From the NCBI RefSeq assembly GCF_055900595.2, contig NZ_CM148325.1: 64,000 bases of DNA. The stretch is one strand, 5' to 3'. This document shows positions 27,601 through 28,253 of this stretch, in pieces (positions within the stretch are counted from its first letter, which is position 1; every line of letters begins with the position of its first letter). Under the pieces are notes generated by a model. The model saw only the letters and a program-made list of their open reading frames with translations. It was not told the DNA's origin and made no database searches. The position numbers and the translations under genes are program-made.

Positions 27601-28253
27601 ATAAAAATCACCCAAAAAAACGATAACCCACTGTACTCCCTGTGCTTTATAAACATAAAGTCACAACACATTCTATATTCATATTAATTAATGGCGCATT
27701 GAAAAAAATCATATTATTCTTAACTCAAATCCATTAGCTAAATAAGCTTATATTCTTCACTCACAACCGTAACAAAAATAATATTATCGAAAGTTAAAGT
27801 TGGGACTATCAAATTTCGCTCATTTCAAACATACATTGTGATTTTTGCAATCATCTTAATCTTAGGGCCTATCATCATATGTTAAAATTTTGTCAATAAT
27901 AGAAATGAATCTTGGTCACCTATCATGCGTTATAAATGTGCAACTGGCTTCCTGCAGATGCTCTTAACTTCTACAGCAGGATTTATACCAGCGTTTCAGA
28001 ACTATCATATTTACCTTAAATGATCATTTCAGTCTTATAACACGCTCAGCCTCACAAATGGTTTACACTGTCTATTGTTTGGGTAATTTAAGTAAGTCAG
28101 CTACGATCAACCTTGAATGGGGAGCCAGCAATGGACTTAAGCCTAATCGGGTCTTCAGATTGTTTCAGAATTGTATAAAAAACAATGTATTAAATAATCT
28201 GATTGTTTTTGGTCATAGTGTGACGCAGAAAGCAAGCCAATAAGGAAATGATT

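Follow-up and report, generated by a model that had tools for sequence, protein, structure and literature searches.

The AT-rich DNA upstream of ybjP in E. coli strain Z0117EC0005 is best explained as a composite divergent spacer, a reading which we hold with moderate confidence. Its proximal half would serve a gene that was inserted next to ybjP, and its distal half would act as a substitute promoter and leader of ybjP. In the proposed scenario, an AT-rich islet of ~2.5 kb, which carries a pentapeptide-repeat gene, was inserted between the sigma-S promoter of ybjP and its ribosome-binding site (RBS). The proximal ~320 bp (27601-27919) would then contain the promoter of the inserted gene (candidate 27812-27783) and a fast-evolving 5' UTR, and the distal ~330 bp (27920-28253) would provide a promoter and a leader for ybjP and be kept by purifying selection. 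Candidate elements of the distal part are the motif CTATTGT at 28072-28078, an invariant palindrome at 28015-28032 and a leader hairpin at 28155-28201. The distal block is assigned to ybjP by elimination, and because ybjP needs to be transcribed from somewhere; selection on the block would follow from its supplying the promoter and leader of ybjP now. Every promoter named in the spacer is a predicted one, read as a match to a consensus.

Location and composition of the spacer

The window, i.e., the whole stretch of DNA that was analysed, comprises 64,000 nucleotides of contig NZ_CM148325.1 (assembly GCF_055900595.2). Gene coordinates are those of the RefSeq annotation of E. coli strain Z0117EC0005, with which the window shares 100% identity:

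25298-25621, minus strand: ybjQ
25831-27600, minus strand: hypothetical or pentapeptide-repeat protein (the inserted gene)
28254-28769, plus strand: ybjP

A sequence-only reading of this DNA had described an AT-rich gap of about 650 bp upstream of ybjP. Indeed, the inserted gene and ybjP are separated by exactly 653 bp (27601-28253), which contain no gene annotated in RefSeq and have a GC content of 32.8%, compared to 50.1% across the whole window. Only 2.7% of all 653-bp segments of the window are as AT-rich as the spacer, and almost all of these are located within the same islet. It is ambiguous which start codon the inserted ORF uses, and the length of the spacer is therefore given as 620-653 bp. 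A second low-GC patch of the window is found at ~58550-59550 (~37% GC in 653-bp segments), and it is the sole one outside the islet.

Insertion of the islet between ybjQ and ybjP

The ancestral layout of the locus was deduced from 80 ybjP loci of GTDB species representatives, which cover Escherichia including E. albertii, Citrobacter, Salmonella, Enterobacter, Klebsiella, Kosakonia and others. In 68 of these 80 Enterobacteriaceae loci, among them that of E. albertii, the divergent genes ybjQ and ybjP are 95-155 bp apart, and the spacer of K-12-type E. coli, which represents the empty site, has a length of 125 bp. Alignment of the empty site with the window revealed that homology ends at 25681 and restarts at 28240 at the ribosome-binding site ATAAGGAAAT; the ~2.56 kb of DNA in between, with a GC content of 32.7%, is therefore an insertion. 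A comparison with the K-12-type upstream region of ybjP had been proposed as a check of the suspected foreign origin of the AT-rich tract, and both the broken homology and the empty site of the ancestral layout support this origin.

Of 5426 complete E. coli genomes, 1124 (~21%) carry the islet, among them O157:H7, O55:H7, SMS-3-5 and PCN033, and it is always found as a single copy and at no other site. Its alleles fall into two classes: class A, to which the window belongs, is found in ~18 genomes, and class B in ~1100 genomes, i.e., ~98% of the carriers. No similarity to the spacer was detected upstream of ybjP in the 80 loci of other species, and no second copy of the spacer DNA was found within genomes. 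Searches against phages gave no match, and the plasmid matches were restricted to mislabelled chromosomes. The islet contains a single ORF; transposase or integrase domains were not found in it, and the search for terminal inverted repeats was also negative. The following remnants and junctions delimit the islet:

25622-25681, no strand assigned: native DNA from the ybjQ side of the ancestral spacer, which shares 95% identity with the spacer of the empty site
25678/25679-25684, plus strand: decayed native ybjP -10 element, CCATGTT (hexamer CATGTT compared to TATTAT), from the alignment of the empty and the islet haplotype
25682-25745, no strand assigned: left islet-specific block, common to both allele classes (6% divergence)
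25708-25718, plus strand: AGGAAATCATC, probable relic of the native ybjP RBS at the left junction (11/11 match to the native RBS region)
28240-28253, plus strand: retained native ybjP ribosome-binding site ATAAGGAAATGATT, at which homology to the empty site restarts
28254-28301, plus strand: islet-linked variant of the ybjP signal peptide, MRYRSLSLL compared to MRYSKLTML, from the allele comparison

AGGAAATCATC occurs at 25708-25718 and again at 28243-28253 and thus forms a direct repeat. The left copy is located ~25 nt past the mutated -10 element, is followed by islet DNA and was present in all islet alleles examined. This degenerate direct repeat, 11 bp from the RBS region, is the only trace resembling a target-site duplication, and the colinear local alignment behind the left relic is weak, as 27 of 500 shuffles scored equally well. 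The simplest reading of the junctions is that the islet arose by insertion at the RBS, accompanied by a duplication of 11-14 bp.

Unrelated insertions of 1.1-3.2 kb are found in the same ybjQ-ybjP spacer of several Citrobacter species (loci L016-L018, L023 and L025). Their cargo includes an ORF for a Qnr-like pentapeptide-repeat protein (L018), an ORF of 442 codons (L016 and L017), which we take to encode a histidine acid phosphatase, judging from its N-terminal sequence alone, and a CspA-like ORF (L025). Cargo genes have thus landed repeatedly in the ybjQ-ybjP spacer of the Enterobacteriaceae.

Separation of ybjP from its sigma-S promoter

In K-12, the transcription start site of ybjP has been placed at -56 by primer extension (Lacour and Landini, 2004; tabulated value) and at -55 by the authors' own mapping (PMC2760140). 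With this start site, the sigma-S -10 element CTATTAT coincides exactly with the left homology break of the islet, and the upstream part of the original promoter falls within 25622-25681. In islet strains, the remnant of the native promoter is therefore located beside ybjQ and 2.5 kb away from ybjP, and the mutated form of the -10 element is identical in class A and class B alleles. The window contains no CTATTAT element positioned for a transcription start 55-56 nt before the ybjP ATG; that distance is occupied by islet DNA. The earlier presumption that the insert might have displaced the ybjP promoter is thus borne out by the position and the decay of the K-12 -10 homologue. The RBS and the start codon are the sole native upstream parts that still adjoin ybjP, and the RBS is conserved in the 80 Enterobacteriaceae ybjP loci, being near-invariant (ATAAGGAAATCAnnATG) where ybjQ and ybjP are 95-155 bp apart.

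The gene itself has been maintained: a dN/dS value of 0.04 in the comparison with O157 reveals strong purifying selection on ybjP in islet strains, for which reason ybjP is presumably still expressed in them. The beginning of the coding region belongs to the islet haplotype. At 28254-28301, the islet variant departs from the empty-site allele at 15 of 48 bases, and since these 16 codons are identical in every islet allele, the boundary of the islet haplotype is placed inside ybjP. The signal peptide of YbjP reads MRYRSLSLLIPC in islet strains and MRYSKLTMLIPC in E. coli and E. albertii, and the islet-strain variant resembles sequences of the Citrobacter/Salmonella type.

Three further observations concern ybjP and its surroundings. 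A frame-shifted or decayed ybjP paralog at 27925-28028 (peptide 'MRYK...IPAFQNY', which is similar to the N-terminus of YbjP) was considered and rejected, as tblastn of YbjP against the spacer gave E>=1 and the ATG is changed to ACG in class B. In the metagenome contig L101, homology to ybjP breaks at ~28307 (after ~codon 18) and is followed by unrelated AT-rich sequence, which suggests a disruption or rearrangement of ybjP. Just downstream of ybjP, an Rfam match to CRISPR-DR53 (28799-28835, minus strand; 25.9 bits compared to a gathering score of 45 bits, E=0.07) coincides with an inverted repeat rich in GC, which is probably a ybjP terminator or a REP-like hairpin and not a CRISPR repeat.

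The inserted pentapeptide-repeat gene

The inserted gene (25831-27600, minus strand) encodes a protein of 589 amino acids when it is read from the ATG at 27600, which is preceded at a distance of 7 nt by the SD-like motif GGGTGA, with a run of seven A residues located just upstream of this motif. A form of 599 or 600 amino acids, which starts ~32 nt further upstream, is annotated in other strains. In the window, this extension is out of frame, as the A-run is A7 instead of A8.

The Pfam match of the protein to Pentapeptide_4 (E=1e-6, 29 bits) lies below the curated cutoff of 38 bits. In a single BLASTP comparison, it shares 22% identity over 155 amino acids with EspX1 of strain Sakai (E=0.001), and it may at best be called distantly EspX-like. 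A sequence search of the PDB retrieved generic pentapeptide proteins only (E about 0.07), no relatives were confirmed in GTDB species representatives, and, among the matches listed from a large protein database (120 of 305), only E. coli and Shigella proteins with 71-99% identity are found. A literature search with the locus tags of Sakai and EDL933 returned nothing relevant.

Comparison of the class A and class B genes gave a dN/dS of 0.27, a dS of 0.57 and a pS of 0.40; judged by its pattern of substitutions, the gene is real and under selection, and its two alleles are very old. It is frameshifted in O157 Sakai and some other strains; the idea that it is a pseudogene in most strains is refuted by the dN/dS value and by an uninterrupted frame of at least 604 codons in 31 of 41 full-length alleles.

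Two halves of the spacer with different divergence

The spacer had been read as one untranslated leader of about 650 bp belonging to the inserted ORF. This part of the sequence-only reading is not supported. The tract is uneven and consists of a fast-evolving and a conserved half. The halves and the elements recognized in them are:

27601-27919, minus strand: proximal fast-evolving half; classes A and B differ at 74/319 positions (23.2%), with indels; 75-78% identity in 1108 genomes
27614-27620, no strand assigned: A7 homopolymer (A8 in the sister class A alleles L006 and L011, G-interrupted in class B), from the allele comparison
27783-27812, minus strand: best conserved sigma-70-like candidate promoter of the inserted gene, TTGATA-18-GATAAT (10/12 consensus match)
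27920-28253, plus strand: distal conserved block, including the RBS from 28240; classes A and B differ at 27/334 positions (8.1%); 91-93% identity in 1109 genomes
28015-28032, no strand assigned: near-perfect, GATC-centred palindrome of 18 bp with the halves CTTAAATGA and TCATTTCAG, candidate operator
28058-28243, plus strand: 61-aa ORF from the ORF list, probably non-coding or a decayed gene
28072-28078, plus strand: sigma-S-like -10 candidate CTATTGT, read from the sequence (modest weight-matrix score of 4.2)
28155-28209, plus strand: AT-rich hairpin (28155-28201, -13 kcal/mol) followed by TTGTTTTT, from the minimum-energy and centroid folds

The difference in divergence between the two halves is significant (Fisher P=8e-8). 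The proximal half is hypervariable even within class B, with pi values of 0.04-0.08 at 27600-27760 and an indel of 9 bp. The candidate promoter 27812-27783 has the top weight-matrix score of the minus strand, and both of its hexamers are unchanged in class B. Transcription from this candidate would yield a 5' UTR of ~175 nt, not 650 nt.

In the distal half, CTATTGT is located in a stretch (28050-28106) without any fixed difference between classes A and B. The strongest plus-strand match, TTGGGT-17-TACGAT at 28079-28107, was rejected as a conserved ybjP promoter, because the T at -7 is a G in class B. A scan of 25500-28900 revealed no excess of promoter-like sites (18 compared to 14.5±3.6 in shuffles), so the candidate promoters are not to be taken as proof. 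The palindrome is part of a 39-mer (27994-28032) that is identical in the eight complete-genome alleles compared, and it overlaps a minus-strand promoter candidate at 28032-28004; since we estimate that ~0.16 such palindromes are expected by chance, the palindrome alone is not significant.

Two independent IS1 events touch the spacer. In strain CUWW06, IS1 has deleted 25849-27915, i.e., the gene and the proximal spacer, and 27916-28253 are kept beside ybjP, which speaks for a role of the distal block as regulatory DNA of ybjP. Strain MEW carries a simple IS1 insertion inside the distal block, near 28064, and the block is therefore not indispensable.

The window also differs from other E. coli genomes on a larger scale. 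A stretch of roughly 30 kb (~8300-39000, from ybjX via the art operon to the potFGHI side) shares no more than 90-97% identity with O157 Sakai, and its art operon part matches 5407 of 5426 E. coli genomes at ~94% identity; in contrast, 6800-8300 are >99% identical to Sakai, and 5000-8000 are 98-99% identical to typical E. coli. Judged by these identities, the stretch resembles a large segment acquired by recombination from a divergent lineage of Escherichia that carries the class A islet. Two segments, 14800-15290 and 32885-33060, do not align with O157 Sakai (identity of 58%, or nothing but gaps). Close to the latter, Sakai has the additional genes ECs_0940-0942 (transport protein, PTS IIB, sulfatase) beside artJ, which are apparently absent here.

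Alternative explanations for the conserved distal block

According to the strongest alternative, which we regard as unlikely, the conservation of the distal block is genealogical. Two old cassette alleles (25746-27919) would have been swapped by recombination, the edge blocks 25682-25745 and 27920-28253 would have followed the more recent history of the adjacent core genes, and the spacer would be AT-rich filler with incidental promoters. The left edge block is conserved like the distal block, so that both edges of the island show low divergence and the deeply diverged unit comprises 25746-27919, i.e., the gene and the proximal upstream region. Furthermore, the pS value of 0.40 of the cassette is two to three times that of the flanking genes (0.12-0.24), which serve as neutral yardsticks. 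Recombination is active at the locus, as allele L006 is a mosaic of classes A and B with a breakpoint near 28100, and the distal conservation may therefore partly reflect shared recent ancestry and not selection. In ybjP itself, 28254-28330 contain no difference in 77 bases, synonymous sites included, and codons 1-25 are identical in all islet alleles. However, the distal block is under-diverged even when it is compared with the neutral rate of 0.17 of the flanks (27/334, P=2e-6), and it is among the least polymorphic stretches within class B, although identity is forced at 27994-28032 by sampling, because 50 metagenome alleles were recovered with the 39-mer.

Next in line is the possibility that the 61-aa ORF (28058-28243) is a real islet-borne gene for a small protein, which is translated without a Shine-Dalgarno sequence; we consider this distinctly unlikely. 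The sequence-only reading had found no convincing ORF in the spacer, and this still stands: the 61-aa ORF exists, and the 16 bases before its ATG (ACGCTCAGCCTCACAA) contain no Shine-Dalgarno sequence of the GGAG/AGGA type. The coding reading draws on the frame being open in 31 of 37 unique alleles, and on a synonymous bias of the fixed differences between classes A and B (eight synonymous of 15, or seven synonymous compared to five nonsynonymous; Nei-Gojobori omega 0.15), which begins at the ATG, the open frame upstream showing six nonsynonymous changes and one synonymous change. The permutation P value of 0.014 applies to one of six frames and is lost upon correction. Premature stops occur in the remaining six unique alleles and arose independently (K13* in five of them, and Q37*), the changes within class B look neutral (10 nonsynonymous and two nonsense compared to three synonymous), and the stop position differs between classes A and B. 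Homologs are confined to 'hypothetical proteins' of E. coli and Shigella and were not found outside this locus, PADLOC, NCBIfam and Pfam gave no match, and the ORF is not among the 465 translated intergenic ORFs detected by RIBOseq in Sakai, for which few growth conditions were sampled. Taken together, the ORF is probably non-coding or a decaying relic.

It is quite improbable that the distal 330 bp form an islet-borne regulatory module that rewires ybjP, either via the 61-aa small protein or via an operator and a leader hairpin together with a regulator. If this were true, about one fifth of E. coli, O157:H7 among them, would have ybjP under a control of the virulence or H-NS type.

It is very improbable that the distal block encodes a small RNA, or a leader RNA of ybjP that acts in cis, with a terminator or attenuator formed by the hairpin 28155-28201: classes A and B have the same stem, substitutions being confined to the loops or the outside, and a terminator-like U-tract follows it in class A, including the allele of the window, but this tract is broken to UAGCGUUU in class B (~98% of carriers), the hairpin has only two G-C pairs and no compensatory change, Rfam gave no relevant match at E<=1 within 27601-28253, and folding is not in excess of that of shuffles (z=+0.44 and +1.60 for the distal block, one value per strand, and +0.48 for the proximal half).

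Possible silencing by H-NS

The composite divergent spacer would, as AT-rich foreign DNA, be a likely substrate of H-NS over its whole length. It shares the features of H-NS targets in its GC content (32.8% compared to 50.1%) and in the islet site being empty in E. albertii and other Escherichia. The high-affinity H-NS motif TCGATAAATT is not enriched, with one site at two or fewer mismatches compared to 1.8±1.4 in shuffles. This motif is not obligatory for binding. Silencing of the spacer by H-NS is thus plausible from its composition and foreign origin, and ybjP may consequently be regulated differently in ~21% of E. coli.

Biological meaning

The mapped RpoS promoter no longer lies beside ybjP in ~21% of the complete E. 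coli genomes, with O157:H7, O55:H7 and SMS-3-5 among them, and regulatory data from K-12 are therefore not simply transferable to islet strains. In a preprint from 2026, YbjP was described as a lipoprotein partner of the TolC efflux and secretion duct, and its RpoS dependence was cited; given this proposed partnership, a strain-specific regulation of ybjP may merit interest. With the distal half as substitute promoter, the locus would be a clean natural example of a core gene that outlives the loss of its promoter by using islet DNA. The present analysis adds three points to the sequence-only reading: ybjP has been uncoupled from its mapped RpoS promoter, a fast-evolving and a conserved half make the spacer a mosaic, and the 61-aa ORF is doubtful. 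The locus is a small AT-rich islet of the standard kind, which has a divergent regulatory spacer, and nothing points to a new kind of element.

Comparison with known systems

One reference is the K-12 promoter of ybjP. The RBS and start codon are the same, and CTATTGT in the distal block resembles the native CTATTAT; however, the native promoter does not adjoin ybjP in the window, and the match (7/8 bases), which is located ~175 nt from the start codon, may be due to chance.

The locus can also be compared with promoter displacement by foreign insertions, in which outward promoters are borne by IS elements or islets. As in these systems, the insertion is located between a mapped promoter and the RBS, the old -10 element has decayed, and the downstream gene is under purifying selection. 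In contrast to displacement of the IS type, the islet contains no IS, transposase, integrase or terminal inverted repeats and shows only a possible direct repeat of 11-14 bp, and the new promoter is a prediction.

A third comparison concerns H-NS-silenced AT-rich islets with upstream regions of the espX/espY type. In contrast to these, the similarity of the inserted gene to EspX1 is marginal (E=0.001), the H-NS motif is not enriched and the spacer is partly conserved. The locus resembles them in its low GC content (33% compared to 50%), in being foreign to the ancestral locus and in the long AT-rich region upstream of a pentapeptide, effector-like gene; for espX1 of Sakai, a gap of 469 bp lies before rpsT, which is similar to the long upstream region of the islet.
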